Virus record (IMG/VR): IMGVR_UViG_3300045988_069781
Location: 32,770-96,769 of that record
DNA from: a virus
Strand: one strand, 5' to 3'
Length of the DNA: 64,000 nucleotides
The stretch's first letter is position 1. Every line of letters begins with the position of its first letter. The notes beneath the pieces were generated by a model, which worked only from the letters and a program-made list of their open reading frames with translations, had not been told where the DNA came from and made no database searches. Shown here piece after piece: positions 2,466 through 64,000 of this stretch. A program made the position numbers and the translations under genes.

Positions 2466-2471
2466 TAGGGA

Positions 2472-12778: not shown

Positions 12779-12813
12779 TTATTACAGGGGTGCGACTGTT
12801 CAACGCACAATCT

Positions 12814-12885: not shown

Positions 12886-12954
12886 GGTCACTAAAGTAGA
12901 TACTTCCACGTAGTGTGACTGGATTAAAACTAAAATCTACTTAAAATAAATAAT

Positions 12955-27892: not shown

Positions 27893-30800
27893 TTATTCAC
27901 ATTCTTTTTTACGTTGTTTACCCATTTTATCTAATTCCTCTGTAGCAGAATCATTTGCTGCTTGTTTCAAGTCAGCTGTAGTAGCAGATACAAATTCTTC
28001 ATCTAAATCATAATCCTCTACTACTTGTTGTTTTGCTTTTTCTAAAGTCTGAACCATTACATAGTTCTTTGCTCTAGATACTGCCACATACTTCAATTCT
28101 TGTCTTACTTCTTGACCATTTTTATCATTAAACCCAAAAGTATTTATACTACTGTCGTTAATTAAAACTTTACTATAAGTACCACCTTGAGATTTATGAA
28201 TTGTGTGAGCATATCCGTAATCAAACGATTTTCTAAGCTTTAATCTACCGTTAGCGTCTTTGATATCTCGCATAGTGTGAATTTTATTTTGTATCCTATT
28301 AATTTTTTCAACAACAGATCTAGCTGCAGTCGGATTTCCCTCAGCTAACAATTGCTTACGCATACTCCACAAGGTCTGTATATATTCTTGAACTTTTATG
28401 ATATTTTCATCTGTTTCAAAATTAGATACTACATCAATAGTAAACGAAGAAGCAGAAGTATCTATTGCGTCTTTGAGAGTAACTTTATATCCTTCCATAC
28501 TTATACTTTCTTTTCTGTCAGGATATGTTAAATCAATTTGAATAGTAGTGGGTTTAACACTTTGCACTACGTAGTCTCCACTATTCATTAATTTGTATTT
28601 CTTTCTTAAAGAATCGTATTCTCTATTAGAATAACCCATTACAAGTTCTCCTTCATACAATTGTGCTGGTCTCCTACCATACAGAATTTGTCTTATTGCA
28701 GAGTTATAAGCTTCTACAGAAGCATTTGTTGCAGCCAAGACTCTAAAATATAGAGGATCTTGTGAATCTTTCATTTCTTTTAATGAAGTTTTAACAAATT
28801 CTCTAATTCTAGTTTTGTCTGATGAATATTCAACTCCTTGACCATTAGGAGCAATGTCTGTTTCATAGCTAAAGCCTTCCCCATTTCTTACTCTAGTAGA
28901 TTCTTTTAATATAGGATTATCTCCAGTTCTTTCTACTTTGGTTAACTGCAATTGTGCACCATCATTTCTAAATACTTTAGATATATTATTTGCTCTTACT
29001 GGTCTTAATTGACCTTTATCCCCCACGAATATGATCTGAGCACCTTTTGCTGCAATTTGTTTAAGTAAGAAATCGTATAAACTATCTTGAATCATTGAAG
29101 CCTCATCAACTATAACTATTGAAGCATCTTCTATTTTAACAGCAGCTACTTGTTCAAATTTCAATTTGTGTAGATCAAATACATCTTCAGTAATATCAAA
29201 ATCAGGACGCAATCCCAATAAACTTTGAAGTGTAAATACTTTTGCGTTTGGGGTTTTCTGTATAGTTACAGCGTTCGCTCTATGAGTTGGAGCTGAGAAA
29301 ATAATATCTGCATGTATTCTACGCTTCAAATACTTATTAAATATACCCATAATAGTAGTCTTACCTGTACCAGCATAACCAGACAAAGTAATAGATGTAT
29401 CATCTCCATTAACAAATGCTTCTAACTCTTTCAAAGCAGACTTCTGTTGGTCATTCAATTCAAAATCTAATTTAACTTCTAAACCATCATCAAAAGTATA
29501 TACATATTTATCTTGTATTTGCTTAGTTTCTTCAACAGCTTGTTTTACTTCTTCTACTTTGGGTAAAGCTTCTGTTAAACCTACTTGACTGGCATATTGT
29601 TGAAGTTCAGTAAATGATGCGGCTTCACCGTTTCTCGATTGATAAGTCTTAGACCATAAATCAACATTTTCAGTAGCTACAGTCTGTAAAGCATTTTCAT
29701 TGAATTCTCCAGCTTGGTTGAATATCTTAGTCTGTAAACTAGCTTTGACAGGAGTCAAATCTTGTACATAGGTTATAGCCTTAGATGGTGTAAAGTCTAT
29801 GCCGGTAGGTACTACATTGTTATAACCTACAGAAGATTTCTTAAAGCCAAATTCAACAAGTACATTACCCTTATAACTTAAACCTTTCTTATTAATCAAT
29901 TGATATACTGGTACTTTATTTTCATCTACACCAATATATTTATATAAGAAAGTAGTTCTAGGGTCATTGTTCTTATCTAATTTAACCTTCTTATAAAGGT
30001 AATGTATAGGATCACCTGCTTCATTATAACCTACAATACCTCTGAATTTACTAGATTCATCATAGATTATAGAAGGTATTTCAACTTGTTCTCCTTTCTT
30101 ATTAGTTACAAATAATCCACTACCATCATGAGCAACAGGTCTGTATACCGCTCTACCTTCTTCTTCAATAGTTTCATAGCTAGAATCCAATTTATAGTAT
30201 TCAATAGCAGGAACTACGTGATCATTCCACCACAGATTTCTAATTACTTCTTGTAAGTCTATCTGAGATATAACATTTTCTGGATGCTTTTCTAATTCTC
30301 TAATATAATCAAAATATCCTATTTCCTCTCTTATAGAGTTAGGAACATATCTAAATATATTGTTCTTACCGAAAGCATCTCCAGACGTATAGAAAGAATA
30401 TATTGCAAGATCTTTAGCAAAGTCTCTTACTTCTTTATAATCACTTTCATAAAGTTCTTCCCAAGCACGAATTATTTCATTTTCTAAATTATTATCACCA
30501 CTCTTATTGGGTTTATATGCAATGAAGTCAGGTCCTTGTAATTCTGCAGCATCTTCTTTAGGTCTACTAAAGATGTTGTTAATCAACACATTTGAAAAAC
30601 TACCATCACTCCCAAGTAATGAAGGATATTTGCCTTGTAATATATCAGATTTAAGTCTATCCAATCTTCTAGAAATACTATCATTACCAAATAACATGCC
30701 ACGGAATCCCATTTGATTATCTTTAACATATTGATTAAAGAATTTAGTCTTATAGGATACTTCCATTGCTCTAGTGATATTGTTAATATATGTATCATCA

Positions 30801-32119
30801 CTTACTGCATAGCCTTTGGTATAGTATTCAATTAATGATCGTAAGGTTTCAAATTCTGGAGTAAGTCTAATCATGACATTCTGGAATGCATTTCTAGGAA
30901 ATACTAATCCATCGATCATTTTCTTACCCAAGAATGTATTAGTAAACACTTTCAAAGGATTGTCGAAAACAGCCTGTTCAGTCATATACTGTTTCCATTT
31001 ATCCAAGAATGCGCTTTGTAAACCAAAGTTATTACCAAATCTCTTAGTATCAATTTGAGATAAGTTAGTTAATTCTGACAAACTCTTAGAAAATGGAGTT
31101 AATTCTTCATAAGCCTTAAGAATTAATAATTGATTATAGTACCAATCAAAAGTTTCAGTTTTCTGCAATTGTTTTCTAAGATGTGGTACAGTAAACATAG
31201 TTTTTCTTTGATTAGTACTTACACCTTTATCCTTAAGATAGTTCAGAAGATTCTCTTTCTTACCACCGGATAACTCTTTTGCTTTCTTATAGTAATCGTT
31301 CCAAATTTTAGTAAATGCTAATCTTTCAGGATTTTTACCAGCAGGTATTTCAACACCATAAAAACCAGAATATTTATCATATTCAGTTGCATAGTCTTTT
31401 AATATCTGTTGAGGTAAGAAATAGAATGTACTTTCACCTTTACCACTTCTAATTAAGAAGTTAGTCATGTTAAAAGTTAATTTACGTACATTCAAACGAA
31501 TAATATATGGGTCTTTAGCTACGTCTACGTGAGCATTAATCAAAGCTGATAACCAGTCTAAAACATTGATCTTATTTGTATCTTCACTTTGAATGTGATG
31601 CAAATCACGTATACCATAATCATTCAATACTTTATTTGGTTTGAAATTCAATTTAACTAATTGAGTTAATACTTGATGAGCATTAGCTAACGCAAATGGA
31701 CCAATACCAAACTTACCACCATTCAACTCAGCTTTAGTCCTACTCTGGAATGCTGGAGTAGAGAAATACAATTGAGATTTACTAGTTCTCTTACCTTGAC
31801 CAGTTAATTTATCAACATCCTTAAGAATCTTATCTTTCAGATAATCTGTCACAGTATCAAGAGGCTGTCTAGCTTCTGCAAAGTTCATAGGATTGCTAAT
31901 TACTGACAAATACATATCAAGAAGCATGTTTTCATTTGCTTCTCTACTATTTGCTTCAAAATCAGTTTTACCATTGTATCTCTCATAAGCTTTTCTTACT
32001 ACAGTTTCATCATCTAAACCAATAGCTTTCAATCTCTGAACATACTGATCTTTTGTTTCGAACTTGATTCTATTACCATTATTGTCATAGTTATATCTTG
32101 CTATAAATAATTTATCAAT
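27893..32119 (-). CDS. virion RNA polymerase exon 2 (1408 aa) with C-terminal SF1 (RecD/Dda-like) helicase domain
   Basis: The track ORF starts at TTG 32032, but the frame stays open, with no ATG, up to TAG at 32147-32149. Exon 2 would begin IDKLFIARYNYDNNGNRIKFETKDQYVQRLKAIGLDD... Helicase motifs: GYAGTGKTT, VIVDEASMI, FVGDKGQLRPV, HKSQGGTY, YVAVSRAK. Confidence 0.75.
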   Translation of the reverse strand: MDKLFIARYNYDNNGNRIKFETKDQYVQRLKAIGLDDETVVRKAYERYNGKTDFEANSREANENMLLDMYLSVISNPMNFAEARQPLDTVTDYLKDKILKDVDKLTGQGKRTSKSQLYFSTPAFQSRTKAELNGGKFGIGPFALANAHQVLTQLVKLNFKPNKVLNDYGIRDLHHIQSEDTNKINVLDWLSALINAHVDVAKDPYIIRLNVRKLTFNMTNFLIRSGKGESTFYFLPQQILKDYATEYDKYSGFYGVEIPAGKNPERLAFTKIWNDYYKKAKELSGGKKENLLNYLKDKGVSTNQRKTMFTVPHLRKQLQKTETFDWYYNQLLILKAYEELTPFSKSLSELTNLSQIDTKRFGNNFGLQSAFLDKWKQYMTEQAVFDNPLKVFTNTFLGKKMIDGLVFPRNAFQNVMIRLTPEFETLRSLIEYYTKGYAVSDDTYINNITRAMEVSYKTKFFNQYVKDNQMGFRGMLFGNDSISRRLDRLKSDILQGKYPSLLGSDGSFSNVLINNIFSRPKEDAAELQGPDFIAYKPNKSGDNNLENEIIRAWEELYESDYKEVRDFAKDLAIYSFYTSGDAFGKNNIFRYVPNSIREEIGYFDYIRELEKHPENVISQIDLQEVIRNLWWNDHVVPAIEYYKLDSSYETIEEEGRAVYRPVAHDGSGLFVTNKKGEQVEIPSIIYDESSKFRGIVGYNEAGDPIHYLYKKVKLDKNNDPRTTFLYKYIGVDENKVPVYQLINKKGLSYKGNVLVEFGFKKSSVGYNNVVPTGIDFTPSKAITYVQDLTPVKASLQTKIFNQAGEFNENALQTVATENVDLWSKTYQSRNGEAASFTELQQYASQVGLTEALPKVEEVKQAVEETKQIQDKYVYTFDDGLEVKLDFELNDQQKSALKELEAFVNGDDTSITLSGYAGTGKTTIMGIFNKYLKRRIHADIIFSAPTHRANAVTIQKTPNAKVFTLQSLLGLRPDFDITEDVFDLHKLKFEQVAAVKIEDASIVIVDEASMIQDSLYDFLLKQIAAKGAQIIFVGDKGQLRPVRANNISKVFRNDGAQLQLTKVERTGDNPILKESTRVRNGEGFSYETDIAPNGQGVEYSSDKTRIREFVKTSLKEMKDSQDPLYFRVLAATNASVEAYNSAIRQILYGRRPAQLYEGELVMGYSNREYDSLRKKYKLMNSGDYVVQSVKPTTIQIDLTYPDRKESISMEGYKVTLKDAIDTSASSFTIDVVSNFETDENIIKVQEYIQTLWSMRKQLLAEGNPTAARSVVEKINRIQNKIHTMRDIKDANGRLKLRKSFDYGYAHTIHKSQGGTYSKVLINDSSINTFGFNDKNGQEVRQELKYVAVSRAKNYVMVQTLEKAKQQVVEDYDLDEEFVSATTADLKQAANDSATEELDKMGKQRKKECE

Positions 32120-32395
32120 CGCTTGTACCCACTGTTTCCAGTGGGGCTAGACTATATCTTCACTTTGATAGTGCTCCCCATTTCGCCTTTCGGCTACTCT
32201 ACTTGCTTCTTCGATCATTTTTTGATCTATGCGTTCGATAGTCGTTGAACTTTCCCCTATACGGGGCTTAGCTGCTGATTGTCCAATCTCATTGTTTTTC
32301 AAACATTCGCACATATCTTTTCAGATTATGCTGTAGTAAATGAGCTCTAAGGGGTTTCCAGCAATTAAAGGAGTTTTACTTCAACTATGTTGTTA
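32120..32395 (-). ncRNA. group I-like self-splicing intron (276 nt, no ORF)
   Basis: P1: the last 8 nt of the exon, ACUUCGAU (32403-32396), pair with intron GUUGAAGU (32385-32378), giving a U.G wobble at the splice site. The last intron nucleotide is G (32120). GNRA-capped or stable hairpins include CAUAAUCU-GAAA-AGAUAUG, CCCC-GUAUA-GGGG, GCC-GAAA-GGC and CCCACUG-GAAA-CAGUGGG. Splicing restores GSDFD-IDKL. Confidence 0.65.
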
Positions 32396-35300
32396 ATCGA
32401 AGTCTGACCCAGTAAGGGCTGTAAATTCATCAGGAAGAGTAATAGTATCACCAATCTGTTCAGGATAAACGTCCACCACTTTTAAAGCTGCTGTAGAAGC
32501 TTGACCCTGTGCAGGGATACGATAACCCATAGCTATTGCCTTTGTATCTGGACCAATTATATCGTGGTTTATTAACCACGCTTTAGCTTGACTGAAAGTC
32601 ATTTTATCATAATTAGGTATGATGTGTTTCAATAAGTTAATTGATATAACACAATCCATACTACCATCATTATTAACAAAATTAAGCTTTCTTACATGGT
32701 TGGCATCAGATGTTACAGCTAATCTATTATATAAGATAGAAGACATCTGAATAAACATACCACCAGGTAGATTAGTATCTACTATGGCTTTATTCAACAT
32801 TGATATAAGACCACTTTCAATCCAAGAATTATCGGATAAACCTGAAATAGGAGCATTAGTGTTGCCATCTTCTACAGTAAGACCATTCAAAACATTATCG
32901 TTCATGTTTGAATTTTCTGCTTTTCTCTTAAGAATATTGGCAAACTTAACAATACTAGCTTGTGGATTATTGGCATCAATACCGAAGTCTTTTTCTATAC
33001 TCTTTCTACCAAATTCAGTAATAGCATTATGTGCTCCATTGAAGTTATCAATAACCTCTTGTCCTGAGTAAGATACACCGTTGGGAGTAGTATATGTCCA
33101 AGCTGTTCTAATGTTACCCATAGCTGCTTTTTGAGCCTGAGATACAAACATCTGTCTATCTGCATGGTGTGGATCAGTTACTAGCTGACGTCTAAAATTA
33201 ACTAAAGACTGTTTGTGAGTAGGCATATTCATTAAACCTTCTACGTCTACCTTGGTATTTGATTTATCTGTGTAAATCTTAGATTTAACTTCTTCAACTC
33301 TTTGACCAACTTTAACTGCAGATTCAAACGCAAGCATGTGTATGTTTCTGGCTTGCATTACTTTTAATACTTCTCCCATATCCCCTGTAGAGAATATTCT
33401 ATGAACTGGGAACATAGCCATTTTGTCAAATACGGGTATGTCTCTCTTTGCATTTACATCATAATGATCGCCGAAATACATTAACTTCAAAGGTTTTAAT
33501 GTAACGGCTAAGGCTTCATTATAAGTATCTGCATCAGCTTCATAATCTGTTTCAGGGTTATTCAATATATCAAAAGCTTTAGCTACTTCAGGAGTCCATC
33601 CATCAATTCTTCTAACTAATTCTTTATAGAATTCAGGAGAGATAAGTACTGTAGCATCCGTTTGGTTTACTTTGGTATAACCACCAAATTTACTATCAAC
33701 TACAAGATTAGCAGCATCTTCAACGTCTTGGGGCAATGCTTCACCACTCTCATACATTGCAAGAGCTTCTTCTTGAGTCATATCATGCATTTCCTGTAAC
33801 AGTCTTACTGCAGCTGACTTTTTAGCAAATTCATTGATTCTATCAAGCTGTCTACTAGGTATTACATTATCTGATAAAGTACCTACATTAACTTCAGTTA
33901 AGTTTGATAATTCATTACCTTCTCCATAATCTATTCTAGGAGTAACACCAGTTGACAATACCTCACGAAGACGTTTAATTTTATCTACAGGATCTTTATA
34001 ATATGCAGGATCTTTAATAAATAACTTCTCAAATTCTATTACTGAGGATATAGTATTAGCAAAATAGTTTGCCATTAACTCTGTAGCAGCTAACTCTTTG
34101 CTGTATTTTGATACCTCTTGACGTTTTTTATAGTGATTTTCTGCATCATCCAATGCCTTTTGAGGAAGCGCTAAGCTCTTTACACTAGCAAAATCCTTAC
34201 CATTCCAATCAATTATACCTATTTCTTTTGCATAATCCAATTCGTCTTTAAAAGCATCTGTTAAATATTCATTCATTAACAAAGCTTTATCAGAGTTACT
34301 CATCTTAGCCCAAGCTGCTTTTATTTGATTTACTACGGATAATGCTAAGTCACTACCACCAATGTCTTCAGCAAGTTTAAGAGCTTCATTGAAATTAGAG
34401 AAATCATCTACAAATTCAATACCACCTAAAGTTGGTTGTTCTTTAAGTTTAAAGAACCCGTTGAAATATCTAAATCTGTAACCATTTCTATTACCAATAT
34501 CATAGTTCTTTACTTTTTGTTCCTTTGTCAGATTACCTTCATTCTTATAGTTGAATTCAATAGTATCTAATTCAGTTTCAAAGTAATTAATAAATCTGGT
34601 TAATACTTTGGCATTAAATTTAACTTGATTGTTAGTAGTATCTAAAGGTTGATTGAAATTGTTGATAGCTGTGCCATATAAAGTATTATATGTCTGAGAG
34701 TCACCCATAGTAGGTAAAACAATTCTACCTTTCTGAGTAAGTGTCATTTTAGCAATATAATCTTCCAATGGTGAGATTTCTGTATACTTACGTCCTTTAT
34801 CACCACTACCCTGTTCCTTGAAATAAACCAAAGTTTCAACACCTATTTTACCAGATGCGGTAGGATTATTATAAAGATTTGTAAGTAAATAGGAACCTTT
34901 GAAATAATTAGGGTTAGCATTGTTACCAGTATTATATAATACCTTAGTAAGAGCTTCTACTGTAGCTGGATCATTATCAAGATTCTGAACCATATCTGTT
35001 AAGTAGTTATGATCAGATATAGGATATAACAACTTACCATCAGTAGACAATACAGACAACTCATCTGAGTTAGGATGTGTCATACCATACGTTTCAGACA
35101 ATCTACCTAAGAATTTAGAATCATCATAGTATCTGCTGATATGTCTATTAAATGTACCAGGTACATTACCAGATGGTTCAATTTTCAGTACATCTTTTAA
35201 CTTATTACCAAATAAGAATGATAAACCAGCATTACTACCATCAGTAAACAAATTTACTATTTGCTCTGCAGGATTTGGATCATAATATTCTTTAATCAAA

Positions 35301-38300
35301 AATGAATTTAATGTAGCCATATCTACAGATATGCCGGCTCTACTTAAAAGCGACAATACATTATCTTTTATCTTGATAACATTAGCTTCTACATACTCTT
35401 TGTAAGTCTGACCATTCTTAAGCTTAGCGTTTGGTTTATTCTTATAGTTCTTGAGTAAGTTATTAATCTTGTGATAATCATCTAATAATAATTCTACATT
35501 AGTTTTATTATCAGTAGTTTTCAATGTATAACTATCACCATCAAAATTTATTAACTCAGTCATTCTAAGTAAACCATAGTTCCAACCTTCGATTATATTC
35601 TTAGAAATCTTATTTGCATTCTCATCCTTTACATACAAGTTAGTCTGATCATTACCATTAGTATTCTCAATCTTTTCAGACAAGATACCAATAAGTTTAT
35701 GTTTAGCTTTTCTAAAGGTATTTCTAAATTGAGTCTGTAAATTCTCTCTAGCTATTACTTGGGCTTCTGATTCTCCTGGAACGGTCTTTGATATTTTATA
35801 CAATTCTCTGTATAATGTGTCAAAGATAGGTAATGATTTTGCACATTTAGCACATTTATTCATCATACCTTCAAATGTGTTCTCTGAATGCAATTCATTG
35901 ATTATAGTATTCCATGTAGAATCAAAATCAACCATAAGAGGTAAACCTGTAACAGGACTTAATACCGTTCTAGTTTTCTGTACCTTTGCAACAGAACCAT
36001 CTTCTTTTTTAACATCTGCCTCATAGAATTCTCTTTTAGGCATAGTAGCAATGAAGATCTTAATAGATGCTAAAGCATTATCTTTTACTGAGGTTTCTAA
36101 TGACTCACGGATATATGTAGCCATTTGATCTCCTACAGCAGAACCTTCAGCCTTTTCATCTATTTCTTGGTCGATGTTTTCCTGTTTGTCTACAGCTCTG
36201 ATTTGATATTCATTCAGTTTCCTTATAATTGCTGGTAAGAATACACTATCAAAGGTTTCATATATTTCTTTTCTAGCCTCCCCTTGTTCTTTGGTAATCT
36301 TTCCATTTTCTACAAGTTTATCTGTTAATGAAGGTTCTAATGCGCTCTTTAACAAACTATAATTTAAACCTGTTAAATCATCTCGCATCTTTATGTTATT
36401 CAAAGTAAACAAAGAAGCAACTAATGAATTAACACTTTCTTTAAATTGTGTATTTGTGATATTCTTGAAATTGTGACCACCCAATTTAAATGGAGCTCCC
36501 GCACCTTTATAAGTATTTAAGAACTCCTGTACAGCTGCAGAATTCTGTTTAGATCTACTATAATAACCTGTATTGATCCTATCAAAGATGTTGTCAATAG
36601 TAGTATCAGTTCTCCAAACCCATTTACTAATAAAGTTTTTGATTGCTTTCCAAGCTCTTTTAACGATATTTAAATCAGGTTCAACTTTATTCAGCATATA
36701 CTGCCTAAAGTCTTCTGCAAGAGCTTCTTCAATGTCTTTATCAGTACCGATTAAACCAGTTCTATTTCTATAAGCTTCGTATATCTTACGACGTTCTTTG
36801 GGTGAAATAGTTAACAATGATATTCTATGATATGCTTCATGATATAAAGTACCTATTTCTGCGCCTTTCCACAGTAATGTAGAATCCTGCCTAACAAGAC
36901 CCATAGCATACACATTGTTACCTAGTGATATAGCATCATCTACTATTGTAAGAGAATCGCTTTGGAAACCTAATTTCTTTTTGAACCATTCTATTTCCTC
37001 GTTAGACACCTCTTTAGTTACTTTACCAGTAAGACGTCTCATAGGAATATCAATGTCATCGTCTTCTATAGCAAACGGGTCAATTGTGCCATTCTTGGTA
37101 ATTTCATTAATCTTTTTTGATTCTTCTGTTAATTCTTCTGGCTCTACTGCAGAAGTACCTGTAGGGATATTAGATACATTTTCAACCTTATTTTTAGTTT
37201 CTTCAACTGCCTTATCACTTTCTACTTTCTTAGATATGGTTTGAATATCATCCGCATAAGCAAAAGAATCTTTAAACAATTGATCCTGTAAATCACTTTG
37301 GATTAAATTGTTAGTAACAAACAAACCCATTGTATACATAGGCGTATGTTCTGCATTACCTAAGAAGTCTTCTCTACGTAATATTACGCCAGGAATAGCG
37401 TCTTCCCATATATAAGAACTGTTTTTTGTAAACGCTTCTTTTAAGGAAGGTAAAGCATCACCTATAGGACTAAAGAAATTTTCTCTATTAGCTCTCCAGT
37501 GAAATCCCATTAAATCATTAATAAGATCTTCTTTGTCTTGAGAAGACATATTACCTACATGATAAGATTTTTCTCCTACTACCAGATCACCTTTATCATT
37601 TACATAAAGCTGTTTCTTCTTCATCCAATTGAAGGTAGGAATATCAGATGTAACTTTGGTTTTATCACCGAAACGAACCATAAAGTCAATCAATTCCCCA
37701 GCTACAATTTCTGTATTCTTATAATAAGACTCAGGAGAAGCTCCATAATTCAAAAGTAAATCTGCAAGAAATTCAGCTTGTTTTCTGTCAAATCTTTGTA
37801 AATTAACTTGTACAGGTATCTCTGAATTATTAAGTGTACTAGATTTGGGGGGATAGATAAATAACTGACCACTACCACCAGTACCATTCAATATTTCACC
37901 ACCAGCGCCAAGAATCAAACTGTCAGAAATAATACCATTACTGATACCAAAGGTTACATTTTCTGGAGTAATGTCATACACATTGGATGGAATTGCAAAA
38001 CCTTTTACTTCTTGTACAGGTCTGAATACTGCCTTTTGACCATTTCTATTTACATTATATCTACCTCTAGTTCTACTGATAGTACTTGGTACAATAACTT
38101 CATTCTCTGTCTTATTTTCAATGGCAGTAATGATTGCGTTTCTAAAAGATTTTAAGTCATTTATAGAAACTTCATTAGCTTGTTCAATTGTATTAAGCTC
38201 TTCTGCTGTAGCACTATTACGAATACCTGCAATATCTACATCAAATTTAGTTCTAGCTCCTTTAGGAGTCTTAAGTGCTAAAGCATACTTACCAGTAGGA

Positions 38301-41300
38301 TGTTCTACACTTAATATGATAGAGGCACTATCATATGTAGTCTTATCACCCTTTTTGTATGGCTTACTACCTTTTTCAGTATAAGATTCATTGATAATAA
38401 ATTCACAGAAACTATCTGTAAAGAAATTAGGATCTTTGATTCTTTCTGCTAATTCTTTACCAGATTTATAACCCGGTAATATAGGAGTAGTAGAATCCGG
38501 GGAGAAGAACAGTGTATGTGATACGGTATCTTTAGCTAATTCTTCTACTTCTAAAGAATCTTCATATTCTCTAGATTCAGAATCCATATCTGTTTTACTG
38601 TCATGTTTCTGTTCAGTAGCTAATTTCTTTTTAGCCTGTTCAACTTTCTGTTCTACAGTAATATCCGGAGTAATAGTATCAACTGTTTGTGATACTTTCT
38701 TATCTTCATCTGTAGCAGCAGCTAAAGGATCTGCATCTGCATTGGCAGCTGCTCTCAAATCTTTATCTGTAGCAAAAGCAAACTCTTCATCCTCTTCTTC
38801 AACATCTTCTACTACTGGAGCTTTTGTCTTACTTTCTTCTGCAATCCTTTTACGTTCTGCTTCAAATTCTGCAGCTAGTTCTTCCAAACTCTTTGTAGGA
38901 AATTCTTCATCACGTTTAGTTGCTGGTTCTGTTTTTTCTTCAGGCTGCATTTTAGGTGTTGCTTCAGGAGCAGTAGGTTCTGGTGCAGGTATTTCTGTGT
39001 TTACTTTGGATTTTGCTCTAGAATCCATTACAGGAGATTGTGGTTTTTCAACTTCCTCTCTTTGTACTCCTGGAGCAATTTTACTTGCTGCTACAGTTTC
39101 ATTGTTGTCTGTACCATTATCAGCTACTTCTTTTTCTGTAGAAGCAATATCTTGTTCAACAATCTGCTTGGCGTTATCTTCTGCAATTCTACTAGATTCA
39201 TCTGAATTATTCAGGTAGTTCTCAATTCTCTTTTTGATATTATTTAATACCTTTTTCTTTGATTTATCTGTAGCTTTGTCAAAACTAGTAAGTTTGCCAT
39301 CTTCCAGAGTATTACCGAATATCTCATTCATTTTATGCTCTGCTACCAAAGCATCATGCTGAGCTAACATTAAGTTTGCATAGCTATCTACACCTGTCTG
39401 CATAACATGAGGAGCTGCTACAAAATCTGTACTAAACTTTGTATCAGCAGCTACTTGAGCCAATTGACTATCAATGTTCTTAATAGCTTTAGGTATAGTC
39501 TTTAAAATAGATTTAGCTACAGAATTATCACTATTAGTAATACCAAATTTAGTTTTACCATCTTCTGCTGGAGCTTCAATCGCATTCTTTAACTCCTGTA
39601 AAGCTTCTTTCTGTACATTCAACTTAGTCAAAGTAATAGCTGCTAGCTTTTCTTCTGGAGTGTAATTACTCAATAAAGCATCTTCAGAAAGATCTGCATA
39701 CAATTTATTATCTGCATCCTGAGCTGCTTTTGCATTGTTTACAGCTTCTTGTAAATCTAATTGAGCTACATGCTGTAAACCAATTAATGTATTATATTCT
39801 GTAGTACCTGCAGAATAACCTAATTGTTTACCAATGTTCTTAGTAGTCTTAGACTTAGCTAAGTTAAATACATTATTCGCAGTTTTGATTTCAGCATTTA
39901 TATCTTCCTCAGTAAGACCATCAGGCATATGATATTTAAAATTCTCTAATACTTCAAGTACACTATCTTTGTAATTGAGCATAGATTTTGATGCTTTATC
40001 AGCATATGTTACTGCTTTATTCATAGCATCTTTCTTAGCCATATTATCTGCTACCATATCTCTAACAAAAGTGTTGGCAACAAAGTCTTTACGCATATCA
40101 ATACCAGCATGATACGCAGTAGTAGGACCACCTAAGTACATACCTAATGCGAAACCACCCTTTACATCATTCCAGAATTGAGGATCATTGGCTAATTCTG
40201 ATTCAGTATCTATTCCTGATAAAATTTTTGCAGTACGGTAATTAGCTTCGGCTAACCCAAGTAATGATGAAAATACACCAGAAGAATTTTTATCGTACTG
40301 ATTGTGAATATAATCGTAATCAAATATATCCTGATCACCTTCTTCAAAAGCTTCAACAGTAGCAGCAAAACCCATACGAGCTAGAGCTTTAGCACCCTTG
40401 CTCAACATATTCATTTTGGGACTATTGTAAGCTAATCTAGCATTAAATCCGGTGTAAGCATCAATAAGCTTATTATAATTCTTAGTAGCAGTATCAGATA
40501 ATTTAACTAAAGGCTTTAATGCGCTAGCTATAGGTTTAGTTATAATTTTACCCATAGCTTTACCTAATGGGGCAAATATCAAAGCTGATTGTGCAGCATC
40601 CATTGCAGACAAAGCCATGTTATTATTGTAAACATTTTCTAAGCCATTATCTGCTGAATCTTTTAAAGAGTTTAGAACTTCATCGGAAATTTTAATCTCT
40701 CCAGATAAAGTTCTATCTATAATTTCATCATCTGAAATCTTTGTAACATCTATATTAGGATTCTGTTGTTTCAATTGATCTCTACCCATTTGAACATAGT
40801 CTTGGATAGATACACCTTTACTTTCAAGATCTTTTTCAATCTTAGAACGATATGCTCCATACACTTGCGCCAATGATTCTCTATGTCTACTATAGATATT
40901 ACCTGCTAAACTTAGTGCTGTAGCAGCAATAGCTGAGCTCCAACCAATAAGATTAGATGCTGCACCAATACCAGGAACTGCATTCAAAGCGCCAGTAGTA
41001 GCATAATGTCTACCAAGATATAAAGCACCTGTTGCTAATGCGTCAGCTACATAGGATTCAACAGTAGACATTGATGAACCTGTTAAACCAGGTCCGGCGT
41101 ATAATACATAATCAGAATCATAGAAAGGCTTATCTTGAGCTTTCTGTTCTTTTATTTGAAATCTAGCAGAAGGTTTGTATCTTTCAGATCTAGATGTGAT
41201 AGAATCATAATAATCTTGAATGCTCTTATTTACTTCGGATTGTTCGTTTACCCACCAATCTCTTACCCCATTTAAGTATTCAATTCTCTTATCAACATCT

Positions 41301-41818
41301 GTACCTTCTGAATCATTGTACTTTGCTAATATCGTGTTATACTTTTCAGAATTGGCTTCTAAATTGTTTTTAAGAATTTCATATTGCTGTAAGGTATTTT
41401 GATATTCTTGAGAGCTCTTATCCATAGTAGGTAAGACGCTTTCAAGATTCAAAAGCATTTTCTTATCATTTAAATATTGTAATTCATAATCAATATCTTC
41501 AATAACAGGATTAATGTCTTTTACTAATTTAGCTCTTTCAGACATCAGATTAATTTGATCTCTATTATTAGCAAAAGTAGTCCAAGCATCCCTTAAATAA
41601 CTCTTATCCTTTAGTGTTTCTTCTGGAGTTTCTTTATTTAACAGATACGCATATTCATAATCATCTAATGGAGTTGTTTCTAAGTTCCTATCATAACCTG
41701 TTTTAATATTAGTGATAGGAGAATACTGAGCATTGACCGTATCCATAGCCTTACCTAATAAGGCTGCTTTGCTAGGTGTATTGTCAGTAGGATATTGACC
41801 TAATATAGATTTTTCCAT
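32396..41818 (-). CDS. virion RNA polymerase exon 1 (3141 aa) with zincin-like HExxH domain
   Basis: 9.4-kb ORF ending ...LTGSDFD directly before a TAA that I interpret as intronic. HEAYH metallopeptidase-like motif (GTLYHEAYHRISLL). Long acidic disordered linker. A size and context of this kind are known only for crAss-like virion RNAP genes. Confidence 0.8.
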
Positions 41819-54098: not shown

Positions 54099-54560
54099 TT
54101 ATAAGTTATTTATTGTTATTGTTATTTGTTCTTTATTATCCATCGCCTTCTGAAGTAGGGGTATAAGCTTGTTATAAGCTACAGTAGAATTAGATATCCA
54201 ATCTTCTTTCATCCCATCCCAAGTACCTACCAGTATACATCCACTTGAATCTTTGGCGCTAGAATTGCCCGTATGAATACGTATACCTAAGAAGTGAGGT
54301 ACATTAAGTATCTCAGGCATAATACGCTTAAAACGGTTAGAATAGCTTAATTTCACCTCATACGTACCAGCAGGTACAGCAGTATCCCCATACACCTTTT
54401 CCTTGCATTTACATGCAATTCCTTTAGGTGTATTAGGACATACTTCAGGTAATGGTCTTACTGGATCTTCAAGTGTATCCGATATATACGCACCATCTAC
54501 ATATAACTCCCCAATAGTATATTCATTAGTACGAAATATTCTATCTAATCTGAGTTTCAT
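54099..54560 (-). CDS. putative cell-wall hydrolase-like protein (YkuD-like H...SxGC motif)
   Basis: 153 aa. IRIHTGNSSAKDSSGCILVG resembles the His ... Ser-x-Gly-Cys catalytic signature of L,D-transpeptidase-fold enzymes. It lies near the holin. Confidence 0.35.
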   Translation of the reverse strand: MKLRLDRIFRTNEYTIGELYVDGAYISDTLEDPVRPLPEVCPNTPKGIACKCKEKVYGDTAVPAGTYEVKLSYSNRFKRIMPEILNVPHFLGIRIHTGNSSAKDSSGCILVGTWDGMKEDWISNSTVAYNKLIPLLQKAMDNKEQITITINNL

Positions 54561-55075
54561 TATGCAGCAGGTGTTTCTAATGCAGCAACTCTCTTTTCTA
54601 AACCGTTTACTTTAAGAGTTAATGCAGCGATTAATTCTCTTACTTCAGAATCATTATAATTAGTCAAACCAGCAAGTCTATTCTTTTCCTCAGTAGTATA
54701 ATCGTTAGTGGATAAACCTTTACCGGTTTGTCTATCTACTTTACCTTCAATAAGTTTCGCATGTGTATTAATAACATCAATTAATTCAGGTAAACTATCC
54801 ATAATTTCAGGAGCATCTCCAATTAAAGCATCAATCTTAGCTTCAATTTCATTTTCACGTCCAGTTGCCCTACTTATTTCAGAAGTAAGATCACTTCTTA
54901 GATCTTTAATATCTGATGTGGCTGTATTATTTACATAAACCCAATCCTTACCATTAAAATATTTCAAATCACCACCGTTAGGATTAGATGCTAAATCAGC
55001 CCAATACTTAACAGATGCAGGATTAGGTTTAATTGTACTCCCTAATATATCGTATTTATTATTATATGTATTCAT
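54560..55075 (-). CDS. fibre protein with coiled coil (171 aa)
   Basis: GKGLSTNDYTTEEKNRLAGL is the same motif seen in the DGR target protein. A heptad-like stretch follows. Confidence 0.65.
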   Translation of the reverse strand: MNTYNNKYDILGSTIKPNPASVKYWADLASNPNGGDLKYFNGKDWVYVNNTATSDIKDLRSDLTSEISRATGRENEIEAKIDALIGDAPEIMDSLPELIDVINTHAKLIEGKVDRQTGKGLSTNDYTTEEKNRLAGLTNYNDSEVRELIAALTLKVNGLEKRVAALETPAA

Positions 55076-58987: not shown

Positions 58988-59632
58988 TTATACTAAAGTT
59001 ACATAGTTATCTACTAAACTTGACAAATCATGTGAAAGTGGCATTTCACTATTCCTAATACATAAATACACTTTACTGTTCTGTGTATAGTATTTATCCT
59101 TAAATAATTCCATAGGTGGTATATAAGGTATTGGATCTTCTAATGTACCAGCATGATCTTTATCAACCACTTTATATAAAGATGCTGTATCTACTCCAGG
59201 AATCCAATTCTCTTGTAAAGTATGATTCTGTATTACCTCATATAGTACATCTGAATTATCTGTTACTACTCTAAATCTAAAACCCTTAGTAACAGAAGTA
59301 CCATAAGAAGCATCTCCTTTTCCCCATACAGGATAAAGTGTTTTCATTTCTAAAGCTTTATCCGCAGTAAGTGAAGAAGCGTTAATTATAGTTCTAATAA
59401 AATTAATAGCTTGTGCTTGTTCATTATCAAACTGTCCTGTATCAACTATTTTCTTTATTTCGTCATAAGATGGATAATGATTAAATACATGTTCATTGTA
59501 TTTATAATGAATAATATCATCTTCAGTTTCCTTATCCTTATCTACTTGAACGTCCCATCTTACTGCCCATTCATTTAAACCTAAGTATTCAACAGAAATA
59601 GGGATGCTATTACTATGTACAATTCTTGTCAT
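58988..59632 (-). CDS. protein with CBM5/12-like carbohydrate-binding motif (214 aa)
   Basis: LYEVIQNHTLQENWIPGVDTASLY resembles the Y..q.HtSq..W.P......LW motif. Confidence 0.55.
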   Translation of the reverse strand: MTRIVHSNSIPISVEYLGLNEWAVRWDVQVDKDKETEDDIIHYKYNEHVFNHYPSYDEIKKIVDTGQFDNEQAQAINFIRTIINASSLTADKALEMKTLYPVWGKGDASYGTSVTKGFRFRVVTDNSDVLYEVIQNHTLQENWIPGVDTASLYKVVDKDHAGTLEDPIPYIPPMELFKDKYYTQNSKVYLCIRNSEMPLSHDLSSLVDNYVTLV

Positions 59633-60644
59633 AACCTAATAATAAAATTTTAAGTTCTTTTATATTATTTGTTCCTGTGAATTTCTTCCACAAATTAAAG
59701 CAATTACCATATCTACACCATCCCCAGTAAGAAGATAGAGACCTGAATTTCTTATTAAAATTAATGTATTTAGTTTTCCTATAGAACTTCTTTTTCATAT
59801 CCTTTCTTAATTTCATATAACTGTGTCTAAAAACATAGCCTAAGAAATCAATTCCTCTATCATCTACAGGATATATTTGCCAATCATGTTTCACTTCTAA
59901 TTCAAGATGTGAGATCATGTATTCTTGTATCTTTTGTAATGCTTGATGTAATTCTTCTTTATTGGAAGAAAGTAGAACCATATCATCACGATATCTGAAG
60001 TAATGTTTAATCTTTAACTCCTGCTTTACCCATCTATCAAACCATGTTAAATAAAGATTAGCAGCAAATTGTGATATATAATTACCAATAGGTAATCCTT
60101 TATCTGTAGAATAAATTATCTCAGATATTAAATTTAGAAACCTTTTATCTTTGAATATTCTATTAAATAGATCCATCATAATCTTTTGATCTACAGAAGG
60201 AAAGAACTTCTTTACATCTAGTTTCAAACAATATTTAGTATTTTTTGGATCTGTTTTTAATGCATGTTTCAATCTTTTTACTGCTAAGTGAATACCTCTA
60301 CCTTTGATACAACTATAAGTATCTGAAGTAAATCGCTTAACTAAATAAGGTTCTATGACATTCATTATAGCGTGATGAGCTATACGGTCTGGAAAGTAAG
60401 GTAATCTGTATATTTCTCTTTCTTTATGACCTCTATCAGCAATAATAGTATAGATATCATATTCAGATGTTTTATAAGTACCTTCGATAAACATCCTTTG
60501 TAATTTTAATAAATTCTCATGTGAATGTTTATCAAATTTAGCAATACCATAACGTTTAGATTTGTTAAGTCTTGCTTTCTTATCTGCTAGAACAAGATTG
60601 TTAAAATCGATAATTCTATTGAAAATATTACCAATGCGTTTCAT
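59613..60644 (-). CDS. DGR-type reverse transcriptase
   Basis: RT motifs, including the DGR-diagnostic LPIGNYISQFAANLYL ([I/L]GxxxSQ) and the catalytic YRDD (FRYRDDMVLL). It lies immediately 3' of the TR. Confidence 0.9.
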   Translation of the reverse strand: MKRIGNIFNRIIDFNNLVLADKKARLNKSKRYGIAKFDKHSHENLLKLQRMFIEGTYKTSEYDIYTIIADRGHKEREIYRLPYFPDRIAHHAIMNVIEPYLVKRFTSDTYSCIKGRGIHLAVKRLKHALKTDPKNTKYCLKLDVKKFFPSVDQKIMMDLFNRIFKDKRFLNLISEIIYSTDKGLPIGNYISQFAANLYLTWFDRWVKQELKIKHYFRYRDDMVLLSSNKEELHQALQKIQEYMISHLELEVKHDWQIYPVDDRGIDFLGYVFRHSYMKLRKDMKKKFYRKTKYINFNKKFRSLSSYWGWCRYGNCFNLWKKFTGTNNIKELKILLLGYDKNCT

Positions 60645-60757
60645 TGCTATTTTGGTGTTAGGACCCGTTCGTCCAATACTACTAGGGTCCCTTCAAAGCA
60701 CCTGTTATTTTTCACCAAGGGGTGAGGCTGATCTAATTTATACAATAAAAAACTTCC

Positions 60758-60862
60758 AAAATTTCACTGTGAACTGATATTCGAATTCGAATTCGATGAA
60801 TCATAATTAGCATTCGAATAGAAGACTCTGCAATCAGACTCATTGTCTGAATTACCTGACTT
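60758..60862 (-). repeat. DGR template repeat (TR)
   Basis: Non-coding 105-nt copy of the VR. In the VR frame it reads K S G N S D N E S D C R V F Y S N A N Y D S S N S N S N I S S Q stop N F, with nine AAT codons. Confidence 0.9.
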
Positions 60863-60939
60863 ACTTTTTAATACATCTTCATCTAATCAAACCATTCTTT
60901 TAGATCCCGCCTTTGTTAATACTCTAGTTTATTATAGGT

Positions 60940-63900
60940 TTATCCATTAAACCCAGGCTCTAACGCCAAAAATTCATCTTTTGTTTTAACTACGATCTTA
61001 CCATAAAAACCTAACCGCGAACCGATAGCCGAATGCGAATACGAGGAAGCACAATAAGCATACGAACAGAAGACCCCGCAAACAGACCCAGAGTCCGAAT
61101 AACCCGACCGCGCAAAAACTCTGTTATCTGTATTATGATAGTAATAGTCTGCATAATATGTAGTATCTGATCCTCCTGTAGTGTTGCTTGGCATAACATC
61201 AGCGTATTCTCCGTGAGTAATGCCAACAATCCAACCATTAGAAGAGGAAGCAGTAGTATTAGATTCATCAGGGCCAACAATTTGTCTTACGTTTGTATAT
61301 CCTGCAGATGTTAAACCTGAAATATCGGTATTTACTTTAAGACCTCCATCGTACACTATCCATTTTCTAGCAATAACATTGATCCCTTGTACGAATTCAA
61401 ATTTACCATAGTAACAATCCTCAAGACCTAAGAAATTACTACTATTATTAAACGTTCCATCCCTATTACCTAACGGTATTGTGTTACCTGTCACACTACT
61501 CCAAGAACGTGTACCACCAGAACAGGGTATACTACCATTATCTGTACTTATATTAGTATTACCATATTTAGCACAGAATAAATTAGCAATAGTTTTATGG
61601 GCTCTGTAATCAATTAATCCCCAGTTACTCCCATTAGCTTGTGCTTGATTGAAAAAAGTTTCTATAGTTTGGTCTCCTGTACTAACAGATGATTTCCTAC
61701 TGGTTAATTTGCCATCACTATTATATGCTTCAAACACACCAATTAAACATTCTCTCTCCTCTTTATAATTCTCATTAATCTTTTTTTCAGATATATATAA
61801 TTTATATTTGTTTACTGCTGCACCAGAGTTATCCATTCTATAATAATACTTAGGGAAATGAACCATATAATATACATAATGGTAAGCTCCAGTAGGTTCA
61901 ACAGTAGAACCATCTTCCCATTTATTACTATCTGTTGAACCAAGATAAGCAATAGCAGCAGAACCATCATTCTGAGGTAATGCTAAACATCTTTTAAATT
62001 TACTAGTAAGGTTAGTAATGATATCTAAATTACCACCTCTTTCTAGTGTGGTGGTACTTGTGGTTTCGTCAAATTGGACCCACATAGCGTGTGTTTCTTC
62101 ATTGATCTGTTCCCAATCAAGAGTGACCTCTTTCACATCATTCAAACTACTTATTTGAATAGTTTGAATCTCTGGAGTTATGTATCCTGCTATGGGTTTA
62201 GGTTCAATAGTCCAAGTTTCAGTAGTTGGTAATATAAATGTATTTTCATCAGTATCCCTTGTAACCAAAGTGTAGGTACTTTCCTTTGGTACAGTATTAG
62301 AATACACATATACGTCTGCTAAACCGCTAATATCTTTTGCTAATTTTATTTTCAATTTAGCTCCTCGATACATTAATGTTTTTTCTTCAGCTACTCCATT
62401 TGCTGTAGAAGTTATAGAATCTGGTGTGACCCATTTCCTAAAATTAGGAGAACTAAAAACAGATACTTCAGTACCCTCAATAGTATATTGAGCACCAGTT
62501 GGAATTTTTACAGTATAGGTACGATTACCAGAAAGTGTTTTAGTTACATAACCTGATAACTTTACATCAACCTTATTAGAAAGTAATTCAGGATGATTGC
62601 TAGTAACATTAATTGTTACAATTGTGGTATTATAAGTTAATGTTATAATCCTAATATTACCTGCTTCTGCAATAAATGTTTGAGATTGTGGTTTAGCATA
62701 ATCAGTTACATCACTACAAGTAATAGTATATGTAGTATTTACTGGAATTGTGGCAGTAAGTTCAGTTCCTTCCCATGTAAGTACTTTAGAAGTTTCATCA
62801 TAAGCTATAGTAATAGTAACACCATTAATGTTAGAATCTGATAACTGATTACTTGCAACAGTTATTTTAACAGTTTCATCTTTAGGTGCTGCTTCTACTT
62901 CTACCCATGTTCCATTCTGTCTAGCATACTGTTTACCATCTTTAGGTGCTTCTGTAACTACTAATTCATCAAAAGTATTGTCTGATAAGTCAACCCATAT
63001 TTCTTGTTCGCCATCAGGTTGTGTACCTTCGCTTATATATACTTCATCAGATATATCTGTTTTTAAAGCATACTCGTTGCCATGTTTACCATCAAGTAAA
63101 TCGGCATCTAAACCACTACCAACTCCATCCACTGTCTTTACTTTGGATAATACATCTGTAGCAGTATATGCAGAAGAATCTAATTTTGTATTAACCTGAG
63201 TAGTAGTAGCATAACCTTTTGCAGTTAATTCAGTTTCAGTTACATATTCTTCAGGTACTGAAGTAAGATAATTGCCTTTTGGTTGATACGTACTAGCTGC
63301 ATCAGTCTTAGTTAAATACCCACTAAGATCTACTGTTTCACTTAATTTATCCCAATCTGGAGTAGTTGAAGTAGCTACATAATTAGCCCCTGTATCTTCA
63401 AGATTATACACATCACCGATACTTACATCTTCGGTAGGTAAGGCACTATAATTAGCTACAGAACCTTTTACTCTATATACTGAACCTACAGCAGTATTAA
63501 TCTTTTGATCTACCTGTTCCTCAGTAATGATAGTAGGTTTATTAAGTATTTGCGCATCTCCGGATTCAGCATTCCAATCAGCATTGACGTTTACTTCAGC
63601 CCCTGCGGCAATACCAGCTAATTTAGTTTTATCTTCATCAGTATAATCATTTGTGCTTAATTGTTTACCGGATACTTTGTCTACTTTGGTATTTAATTTA
63701 CTATCTACATAAGTCTTATCAGCTTTACCAGAGATTTGTTCGGTAACGTCTACTGCTGCCACAGTATCATCTACATACTTCTTAGTGGCAGGATGATAAT
63801 CTGCAGTAGGTGTATATGTACTAGTATTGCTTTTAGATATATATCTACTGTCGTGATTGTGACTAGTAATGTCCCCAGTAAGTACAGCTTCTACATTCTG

Positions 63901-64000
63901 TTTAGTTACAGAAGCATCACTACCTGGGTCTCCTTTCTCTCCTTTTTCACCAGGATCACCTTTATCTCCTTTAGGTCCAGTTTCACCTTTATCTCCTTTT
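60940..64000 (-). CDS. DGR target: fibre protein with collagen-like N-terminal region and C-terminal variable domain (partial, runs off the window)
   Basis: The track start (GTG 63762) is internal. The frame stays open to position 64000 and there encodes Gly-X-Y repeats (KGDKGETGPKGDKGDPGEKGEKGDPG). It also carries the SGKQLSTNDYTDEDKTKLAGI fibre motif. The C-terminus YYADYYYHN...VR...GFYGKIVV fits CLec-type DGR targets. Confidence 0.85.
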   Translation of the reverse strand, partial: KGDKGETGPKGDKGDPGEKGEKGDPGSDASVTKQNVEAVLTGDITSHNHDSRYISKSNTSTYTPTADYHPATKKYVDDTVAAVDVTEQISGKADKTYVDSKLNTKVDKVSGKQLSTNDYTDEDKTKLAGIAAGAEVNVNADWNAESGDAQILNKPTIITEEQVDQKINTAVGSVYRVKGSVANYSALPTEDVSIGDVYNLEDTGANYVATSTTPDWDKLSETVDLSGYLTKTDAASTYQPKGNYLTSVPEEYVTETELTAKGYATTTQVNTKLDSSAYTATDVLSKVKTVDGVGSGLDADLLDGKHGNEYALKTDISDEVYISEGTQPDGEQEIWVDLSDNTFDELVVTEAPKDGKQYARQNGTWVEVEAAPKDETVKITVASNQLSDSNINGVTITIAYDETSKVLTWEGTELTATIPVNTTYTITCSDVTDYAKPQSQTFIAEAGNIRIITLTYNTTIVTINVTSNHPELLSNKVDVKLSGYVTKTLSGNRTYTVKIPTGAQYTIEGTEVSVFSSPNFRKWVTPDSITSTANGVAEEKTLMYRGAKLKIKLAKDISGLADVYVYSNTVPKESTYTLVTRDTDENTFILPTTETWTIEPKPIAGYITPEIQTIQISSLNDVKEVTLDWEQINEETHAMWVQFDETTSTTTLERGGNLDIITNLTSKFKRCLALPQNDGSAAIAYLGSTDSNKWEDGSTVEPTGAYHYVYYMVHFPKYYYRMDNSGAAVNKYKLYISEKKINENYKEERECLIGVFEAYNSDGKLTSRKSSVSTGDQTIETFFNQAQANGSNWGLIDYRAHKTIANLFCAKYGNTNISTDNGSIPCSGGTRSWSSVTGNTIPLGNRDGTFNNSSNFLGLEDCYYGKFEFVQGINVIARKWIVYDGGLKVNTDISGLTSAGYTNVRQIVGPDESNTTASSSNGWIVGITHGEYADVMPSNTTGGSDTTYYADYYYHNTDNRVFARSGYSDSGSVCGVFCSYAYCASSYSHSAIGSRLGFYGKIVVKTKDEFLALEPGFNG
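61006..61110 (-). repeat. DGR variable repeat (VR)
   Basis: Gap-free alignment to the TR at an offset of 248 nt. There are 27 mismatches, 26 of them opposite TR adenines. It encodes RSGYSDSGSVCGVFCSYAYCASSYSHSAIGSRLGF near the C-terminus of the fibre gene. Confidence 0.9.

Follow-up and report, generated by a model that had tools for sequence, protein, structure and literature searches.

Does a 64,000-nucleotide stretch of viral DNA (positions 32,770 to 96,769 of the IMG/VR record IMGVR_UViG_3300045988_069781, hereafter called the window) carry a complete diversity-generating retroelement (DGR), with a variable repeat (VR) in a target gene, a template repeat (TR), and a reverse transcriptase (RT), and is this copy active? 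The initial annotation had proposed such an element at 59613-61110 on the minus strand, in the order target-VR, TR, structured spacer, and RT, without the accessory gene Avd. All of these structural claims held in our analysis, and we consider, with a probability of roughly 0.93, that the locus is a complete DGR of the Avd-less type in a crAss-like phage from the human gut. The VR lies 21 codons ahead of the stop codon of the fibre gene, the TR frame contains a stop codon, and the TR is 110 nucleotides (nt) upstream of the RT. The VR had been described as the last ~35 codons of the fibre gene; it is indeed near the 3' end, but 21 codons still follow the listed VR peptide. The parts of the cassette, all on the minus strand, are as follows, where IMH denotes initiation of mutagenic homing and FGE the formylglycine-generating enzyme.

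60940-64000, minus strand: target gene, a collagen-like tail fibre, 5'-truncated by the window edge, with its frame open to base 64000.
60943-61899, minus strand: modelled C-type-lectin/FGE-fold variable-protein domain, the C-terminal 319 amino acids (aa) of the target, which carries the VR.
61026-61110, minus strand: mutagenised zone of the VR (repeat index 0-84), with 17 diversifiable codons.
61002-61025, minus strand: fixed, IMH-like 3' end of the VR (...GGTTCGCGGTTAGGTTTT), which encodes GSRLGF, is not diversified, and includes the non-A mismatch at 61013.
60778-60862, minus strand: template zone of the TR, non-coding, with 29 adenines (including the bounds at index 87 and 91) and AAT-rich codon equivalents.
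60754-60777, minus strand: IMH*-like 3' end of the TR, which contains a TGA in frame and differs from the VR at fixed positions.
59613-60644, minus strand: DGR reverse transcriptase of 343 aa, with IGNYISQ at 60089-60069, YRDD at 59993-59982, and the Arg codon CGT of the latter at 59990-59988.

The repeat pair itself provided the first line of evidence. On the minus strand, the VR (61110-61006) and the TR (60862-60758) aligned without gaps at a constant offset of 248, and 26 of the 27 mismatches fell at TR adenines, exactly as initially counted; 26 of the 34 TR adenines differed (A to G, 14; A to C, 6; A to T, 6). When the repeat was extended to 109 nt, the association between mismatches and TR adenines had a Fisher p of 1.2e-15. 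Both strands of the window were then scanned with an A-masked TR, and the VR alone matched (70 of the 73 non-A positions, against 36 of 73 for the next best site). A generic repeat search did not detect the pair, as the mutagenesis leaves no exact 9-mer intact. The sole non-A mismatch, G/T at 61013/60765, is explained by its position, since the last ~24 nt are the fixed IMH/IMH*-like segment. There, every TR adenine at index 87 or beyond index 91 faced the same fixed base in all 22 of the VRs compared below, and the variation in the IMH-like segment was synonymous drift only (TTA/TTG and GGT/GGC). The 3' end of the TR (60754-60777) is apparently not transferred to the VR. The VR translates as RSGYSDSGSVCGVFCSYAYCASSYSHSAIGSRLGF(Y), in agreement with the earlier reading, and its 17 diversifiable codons give a repertoire of ~10^15 protein variants. 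The TR had also been said to be built from AAT, AGT, and GAT codons; AAT does dominate the VR frame (8 codons), but AGT occurs once. A cruciform downstream of the VR was considered as a candidate and rejected, as this site holds just a 6-bp inverted repeat at the stop codon (60937-60953).

The second line of evidence comes from natural variation. With an A-masked TR pattern, in which the private TR base G27 of the window was also masked, we retrieved 33 related contigs (7 viral and 26 from human-gut metagenomes), and the VR comparison was limited to the 23 loci with an ungapped VR. These 23 usable loci carried 22 different VRs, and the TR was near-invariant across the 33 contigs. As the initial annotation had proposed for population data, the variation, here compared across contigs, was confined to positions of TR adenines: 29 of the 38 TR-A columns were variable, many with three or four bases, vs 7 of the 71 non-A columns, mostly singletons (Fisher p 2.6e-12). 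The mean pairwise difference came to 18.8% for the VR zone, compared with 1.6% for the TR and 3-4% for the sequence immediately 3' of the VR; the nucleotide-diversity figures for the spacer and the RT were disregarded, as they are inflated by indel offsets of 1-2 nt. TR polymorphisms from A to another base were matched by the same base in the genome's own VR in 17 of 17 cases, and at these columns the genomes that keep the TR adenine showed up to four VR bases. The VR of the window carries both of its own TR alleles, G at index 27 and T at index 57, and was therefore written from the present TR. These data show that information flows from TR to VR in natural populations. A related observation concerns the TRs of loci L086, L087, and L107 (index 28, 33, and 35), which carry fixed A-to-G changes; nearly all VRs carry G at index 33 and 35. 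The template there seems to have evolved to stop randomising positions under strong selection.

The third line of evidence is the RT, whose open reading frame (ORF) contains the IGNYISQ and YRDD motifs as first described. It matched Pfam RVT_1 (2.4e-19), and its best solved-structure match was chain 8ub7_A (328 aa; E 1.1e-39, full length), with a group II intron RT at 5e-13; 8ub7_A was linked to Brt, the RT of Bordetella phage BPP-1, solely through their shared length of 328 aa and the agreement of the alignment statistics. In a direct alignment with BPP-1 Brt (328 aa), the identity was 31% (E 3e-45), with IGNYISQ opposite IGSLTSQ. An exhaustive search of 1.84 billion representative proteins yielded 1268 proteins at E < 1e-30, and GxxxSQ occurred in 136 of the best 150 representatives. 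Nearly all of the 70 RT loci fetched from viral contigs had an A-biased VR/TR pair directly upstream. The RT groups with DGR RTs, not with those of group II introns or retrons.

These results bear directly on the question of whether the locus is a DGR at all, or whether the repeat is an ordinary diverged duplication lying beside the RT of a retron, a group II intron, or a defence system. The NCBIfam search could be read in that way, as only sub-threshold matches to group II, Drt, and retron models were obtained and the DGR-specific models were silent. The RT is far nearer to 8ub7_A than to group II or retron RTs, and it aligns with BPP-1 Brt; no intron RNA domain was found at the locus; and the target has a DGR variable-protein fold (see below). 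Together with the A-specific mismatches (p 1e-15), the population variation at A sites, and the TR alleles copied into the VR, these observations refute the non-DGR explanation.

The target gene supplies the fourth line of evidence. Its frame has no stop between 63999 and 63762, and the GTG at 63762 that is listed as its start is not the true one; a full-length homologue in the related locus L004 (1339-5706) has 1455 aa. The description "collagen-like" proved apt, as (G-X-Y)9 was found at 63916-63996 and the L004 homologue has long collagen tracts. The target matches PHROG tail protein and tail fibre families, and its relatives P0106 and P0109 carry Pfam Collagen (PF01391). For the lectin domain, nothing significant was found with Pfam, NCBIfam, phmmer, or a profile search of the PDB, where chain 5vf4 reached just E 0.12. 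Modelling of the fibre C-terminus had been suggested as a check for a C-type-lectin fold, and the AlphaFold2 model of the last 319 aa, built from a diverse alignment of 72 sequences, was confident (pLDDT 87.3, pTM 0.89); a model from 24 close homologues was discarded as unusable (pLDDT 43). The top Foldseek match of the confident model in the PDB was 5vf4, the DGR variable protein TaqVP of Thermus (E 4.8e-10, probability 1.00), followed by Bordetella Mtd (1yu0-4), Treponema TvpA (2y3c), and then FGE/EgtB. On this model, the tip of the target is a C-type-lectin fold of the DGR type. Separately, a 75-nt stretch with 72% identity occurs at 63613-63687 and 54668-54742 of the window (minus strand) and encodes GK.LS.NDYT.E.K.KL, a motif that the target fibre of the DGR has in common with another small fibre-like ORF (54560-55075).

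The fibre gene also places the host phage. Its 5' part has 90-93% identity with the Suoliviridae/Boorivirinae genomes cr1_1 and cr55_1, and the closest annotated RTs are those of cr50_1 and cr10_1 (62-64%). The phage is a member of Crassvirales, Suoliviridae/Boorivirinae-like.

We also analyzed the RNA spacer separating the TR from the RT, the elements of which are listed here (Sp, spacer).

60642-60751, minus strand: structured spacer RNA from the TR to the RT, with the Sp strand of a stop duplex, hairpin P1, an A-run, a single-stranded linker, and an interrupted stem.
60736-60725, minus strand: Sp strand of the stop duplex, which pairs with the upstream strand over 11 bp.
60724-60713, minus strand: hairpin P1, CACC-CCTT-GGTG, followed by the A-run at 60712-60704.
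60690-60685 with 60666-60661, minus strand: stem P2, GGACCC/GGGTCC, which encloses UAGUA (60684-60680), the inner hairpin P3 (60679-60671), and GAA (60670-60668).
60900-60912, minus strand: upstream strand of the duplex (AGGC..GATCTAA), resembling the "cPRT Stop" of BPP-1, ~40 nt 5' of the TR.

In the relatives, the TR and the RT lie 95-150 nt apart. A consensus from 40 spacers comprised a 4-bp hairpin and then an A-run, a variable linker, and an interrupted stem whose UWGUA and GAA junctions are conserved. RNAalifold on the 40 loci found compensatory changes at 10 of 11 pairs; 93.8% of the cells were paired, vs 68% in shuffles and 32-46% in slid controls, and none of 500 shuffles reached the observed value. 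Both spacer stems named in the initial annotation therefore exist and are supported by covariation, but the second of them (GGACCC/GGGTCC) had been placed ~10 nt off and lies at 60690-60661, and the first is CACC/GGTG at 60724-60713. In addition, the 14 nt just 5' of P1 form a duplex with a stretch located 10-45 nt upstream of the TR; such pairing, with differing sequences, was found in 31 of 37 loci (mean z -3.0 vs shuffles). The same procedure applied to BPP-1 as a control recovered the published avd369-380:Sp58-70 duplex (bioRxiv 10.1101/2023.10.23.563531). A purpose-built covariance model gave a single match in the window, 60642-60751 (E 3.5e-12), and was adjacent to the TR in ~50 other loci; in L030 and L032, it adjoins the TR and not the distant RT. 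No match of this model was found in BPP-1 or in the DGR-less locus of cr1_1. Among known families, Rfam RT-18 (RF03021) matched the spacer over the full model 1-84 with 39.1 bits (E 1.7e-5), under the 41.3-bit gathering threshold, and RT-17 (RF03020) matched with 30.7 bits; the spacer of the related locus L028 passes the RT-17 threshold. The spacer is thus a conserved structured RNA, though not new as a motif, and the elements would have the functions of their counterparts in BPP-1.

Several observations weigh against the reading of the locus as a complete and working DGR of this type, and we set them out together. First, the VR variation is between assemblies from different samples, not within one population. 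Second, divergence is not limited to the VR: between relatives, the lectin scaffold on its 5' side differs by 11-16%, through ordinary divergence or recombination, and therefore the raw divergence of the VR is not decisive; the A-specific pattern is the evidence. Between the window and L004, a relative with a 99% identical RT, the scaffold at 61200-61900 differs by this same 11-16%, whereas the segment from the VR 3' end through the RT is 98-100% identical, which suggests from sequence comparison that fibre-tip recombination or module exchange may act on top of DGR activity. Third, the IMH-like segment is AT-rich, unlike the GC-rich IMH of Bordetella. Fourth, the covariance model finds no homology between the spacer and that of BPP-1, so the element-by-element mapping is an analogy. 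Fifth, a 9-bp template:primer pairing was predicted in the window (TR 60770-60762 with spacer 60750-60742, z -2.3), but such TR:spacer pairing fails across loci (mean z +0.25, 3 of 37 loci). Sixth, Arg at the X position of the YXDD box is absent from the same-TR loci and from distant RTs, so that the present-day activity of this copy is uncertain.

The sixth point deserves separate consideration. The YRDD box arose by a private change from TGT to CGT (T to C, Cys to Arg), with both catalytic Asp residues retained. The other same-TR loci all have YCDD (TGT; 22 of 22), and among the 150 nearest representatives, none of the 131 readable boxes has Arg at X, which is M, C, A, V, S, G, L, or I. One could therefore suppose that the DGR is genuine but was recently silenced or impaired in this genome, that YRDD cripples or alters polymerisation, and that the VR is the frozen product of an earlier round. 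Decay is seen in relatives, as the RTs of L010 and L016 are N-terminally truncated and the VR of L016 has a 9-nt deletion, and fragmentary cassettes have been reported in alpha and epsilon crAss phages (PMC12386605, PMC7290462). We nevertheless regard such silencing as rather unlikely: the ORF is otherwise intact, both catalytic Asp residues are kept, and the window VR has its own TR alleles G27 and T57, so that homing was recent in this lineage. An error in sequencing or assembly, or a minor variant, could also account for the Arg. The initial annotation had called the element apparently active; this is borne out for the lineage and for the past of this genome, whose VR carries its own TR alleles, but not for the present copy with its private YRDD. 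We conclude that this copy was certainly active since its TR gained the present alleles; it may now be impaired, or the YRDD base may be an assembly error. The decayed cassettes are also of interest in themselves, as they keep both TR and VR. The RT match begins at residue 128 in L010 and at residue 166 in L016, L081, and L096; the latter three have a VR with the 9-nt deletion, and the VR of L016 has lost one TCGAAT repeat unit.

A further question concerns the accessory protein Avd, which occurs in most DGRs, but not all. In the 295-nt gap between the target and the RT, the sense strand has no ORF of Avd size, as the initial annotation had noted, and Avd was not found with Pfam, NCBIfam, BLASTP, or a tblastn search of the whole window. 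Lineage 3 DGRs lack Avd (PMC5758913), as do crAss DGRs (PMC7290462, PMC12386605). One neighbouring ORF had been singled out for examination as a possible Avd-like helical bundle.

58988-59632, minus strand: ORF of 214 aa that overlaps the RT stop by 20 nt, with an acidic N-domain and a carbohydrate-binding-like C-module; listed here as context of the DGR.

This ORF has no similarity to Avd, and its isoelectric point (pI) of 4.9 differs from that of Avd (9.55). We found no family annotation for its N-domain (P..IE.LG...W.VRWD). Could the ORF, through this conserved domain, be a functional DGR accessory that replaces Avd? In its favour, besides the 20-nt overlap, the N-domain was located at the RT stop in 28 loci and in 13 of 32 RT groups, and was the commonest neighbour besides the RT and the target, although these counts rest on RT-anchored loci. 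We consider such a role improbable. The protein is acidic (pI 4.8-4.9), about half of the RT groups have no N-domain ORF, and cr50_1 has a second copy of the N-domain, behind a different tail gene. Moreover, the N-domain in the window and in L072 is fused to a mobile carbohydrate-binding-like module that is also found without an RT (phrog_30034/27545; e.g., away from any RT in cr1_1). A role in the tail module, as an adaptor or chaperone, is more likely for the 214-aa ORF than one as an RT accessory. N-domain ORFs were located at 58988-59632 (minus strand) in the window, at 1572-1916 and 4264-4650 in L001, and at 7199-8008 in L072.

A different protein was observed beside the RT in other loci. 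In 21 environmental DGR loci (among L017-L043; e.g., L026 6947-7243), the RT stop overlaps with a basic protein of ~98 aa (pI 9.5; phrog_19665). In L011-L015, this protein is fused to the C-terminus of the RT (RT residues 322-421), and it is absent from the window. Such a Rosetta-stone fusion suggests that the ~98-aa protein may be an RT-associated accessory in Avd-less DGRs.

Based on these results and by analogy with the Bordetella BPP-1 DGR, from which the cis-priming, the start and stop sites of the complementary DNA (cDNA), the roles of the RNA elements, and the receptor-binding function are taken, the element in the window would work as follows. A transcript would reach from ~50 nt upstream of the TR across the TR itself and the 110-nt spacer, and would probably go on into the RT gene. 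The sequence upstream of the TR would pair with the spacer as a "stop" duplex, followed by the short hairpin, the adenosine run, and the RT-proximal interrupted stem. The RT would bind this RNA and copy the TR into cDNA, from ~60771-60778 back to ~60862 and slightly beyond, with misincorporation opposite template adenines. The cDNA would then replace 61110-61026 of the VR in the fibre gene and leave the fixed segment 61025-61002 alone. Seventeen codons would thereby be re-randomised (~10^15 variants) on the ligand-binding face of the lectin-fold tip of a 1455-aa fibre, and the re-randomised tip would change the host-receptor specificity.

A more general proposal, for which we see about even odds, is that the Avd-less DGRs of this clade share the cis-priming RNA logic of Bordetella (stop duplex, hairpin and A-minor adenosines, "thumb ring," and RT-binding interrupted stem) but have lost the Avd-binding hairpin, so that RT and RNA would form a self-sufficient ribonucleoprotein. 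In the window, the distance from the TR end to hairpin P1 is ~30 nt, and there is therefore no room for the 31-nt Avd-binding stem-loop. Under the same proposal, the orphan Rfam motifs RT-17 and RT-18 would be the spacer RNAs of such DGRs, and a sister clade may supply an Avd-like function through the basic ~98-aa module, which is either encoded by an ORF of its own at the RT stop or appended to the C-terminus of the RT.

Elsewhere in the window, we detected several further elements, with tRNAs among the Rfam matches. A group I intron at 32128-32471 (minus strand; Rfam 78.6 bits) lies between ORFs of 3141 aa (32393-41818) and 1379 aa (27893-32032) on the same strand, and probably splits one giant gene. 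A permuted transfer-messenger RNA (tmRNA) at 2157-2540 (plus strand), for which ARAGORN gives the tag GNYSFVTDYSYVA*, overlaps a tRNA-like element whose anticodon loop is odd. A RAGATH-22 RNA (window 1351-1530, plus strand, given jointly with the tmRNA at 2157-2540, plus strand) was found at the Rfam threshold (120.5 vs 120.3 bits), and a tRNA-Val(CAC) is located at 12813-12886.

CrAss-like phages are the most abundant viruses of the human gut, and tropism switching by DGRs helps to explain their persistence against the surface variation of Bacteroidales. The locus and its relatives form an unusually clear natural dataset, in which one TR is accompanied by 22 VR variants and the VRs follow the polymorphisms of their TRs. 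We consider that the by-products of the analysis, namely the RNA architecture of Avd-less DGRs and the natural YCDD-to-YRDD variant, are more useful than the locus itself. The architecture, backed by covariation, would give Rfam RT-17 and RT-18 a role and leads to the prediction that priming is independent of Avd, and the variant may affect RT fidelity or activity. Compact Avd-free DGRs would also be attractive for engineered targeted mutagenesis.

Finally, we compared the locus with known systems. The BPP-1 DGR (Mtd/Avd/TR/Brt) belongs to the same mechanism class, with an RT that is 31% identical over its full length and a lectin-fold variable protein. The order of the spacer elements is alike: the upstream:spacer duplex, a short hairpin and adenosines, a single-stranded stretch, and an interrupted RT-proximal stem. 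The TR 3' end is not transferred in BPP-1 and apparently not in the window. The window differs in that it has no Avd gene, in its spacer length (~110 nt vs 144 nt in BPP-1), in the distance of the stop duplex upstream of the TR (~40 nt vs ~8 nt), and in its AT-rich IMH-like segment. Handa et al. described in BPP-1 a "cPRT Stop" (a duplex, a short stem-loop, and A-minor adenosines), a Thumb Ring, and a bRT-binding stem-loop, and their survey took in Avd-containing DGRs only (bioRxiv 10.1101/2023.10.23.563531). With the Rfam motifs RT-18 and RT-17 (PMC5737381), the spacer shares a 4-bp hairpin with a tetraloop, an A-run, an outer helix, a 7-bp stem, UAGUA, an inner hairpin, and GAAA. Rfam gives these motifs no function; Weinberg et al. 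(2017) located RT-10 in the spacer of BPP-1 and, as a speculation, proposed that RT motifs besides RT-10 operate in DGRs (PMC5737381). TaqVP (PDB 5vf4) is the best structural match of the modelled fibre tip, with a TM-score of 0.40-0.47 and a sequence identity of just 14-15%; it is a cellular protein, whereas the target in the window is a phage fibre.

The closest parallels are found among gut DGRs. With Lineage 3 of Wu et al. (2018), from Bacteroides and relatives (PMC5758913), the locus shares the absence of avd, the target-TR-RT layout, and a CLec3-like VR ending in ...GSRL, so that its membership in this lineage is indicated by features rather than by phylogeny. CLec3-type VRs end in SRL, and LMMB has been placed in lineage 3 (PMC7290462). 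The DGRs of crAss-like phages (crAssphage LMMB of Intestiviridae, and zeta/epsilon phages; PMC7290462, PMC12386605) have the same order of target (VR), TR, and RT without avd, and likewise come from the human gut. They also share a tail-fibre target, a C-type-lectin-type VR of ~35 codons, and an RT with GxxxSQ; the LMMB RT is 43% identical to that of the window. The differences lie in the phage family, as the genomes nearest to the window are the Suoliviridae/Boorivirinae cr1_1, cr55_1, cr50_1, and cr10_1; in the target, a 1455-aa collagen-like fibre vs a 486-aa tail-collar fibre; in the SRL ending, which is kept in the window VR and lost in LMMB-type VRs; and in the aberrant YRDD of the window RT. 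Reports of Avd-less DGRs that act on tail fibres of crAss-like phages have appeared since 2020 (PMC7290462, PMC12386605, PMC5758913). The kind of DGR is thus already known, and to it the locus adds a Suoliviridae-like example with a long collagen-like fibre.

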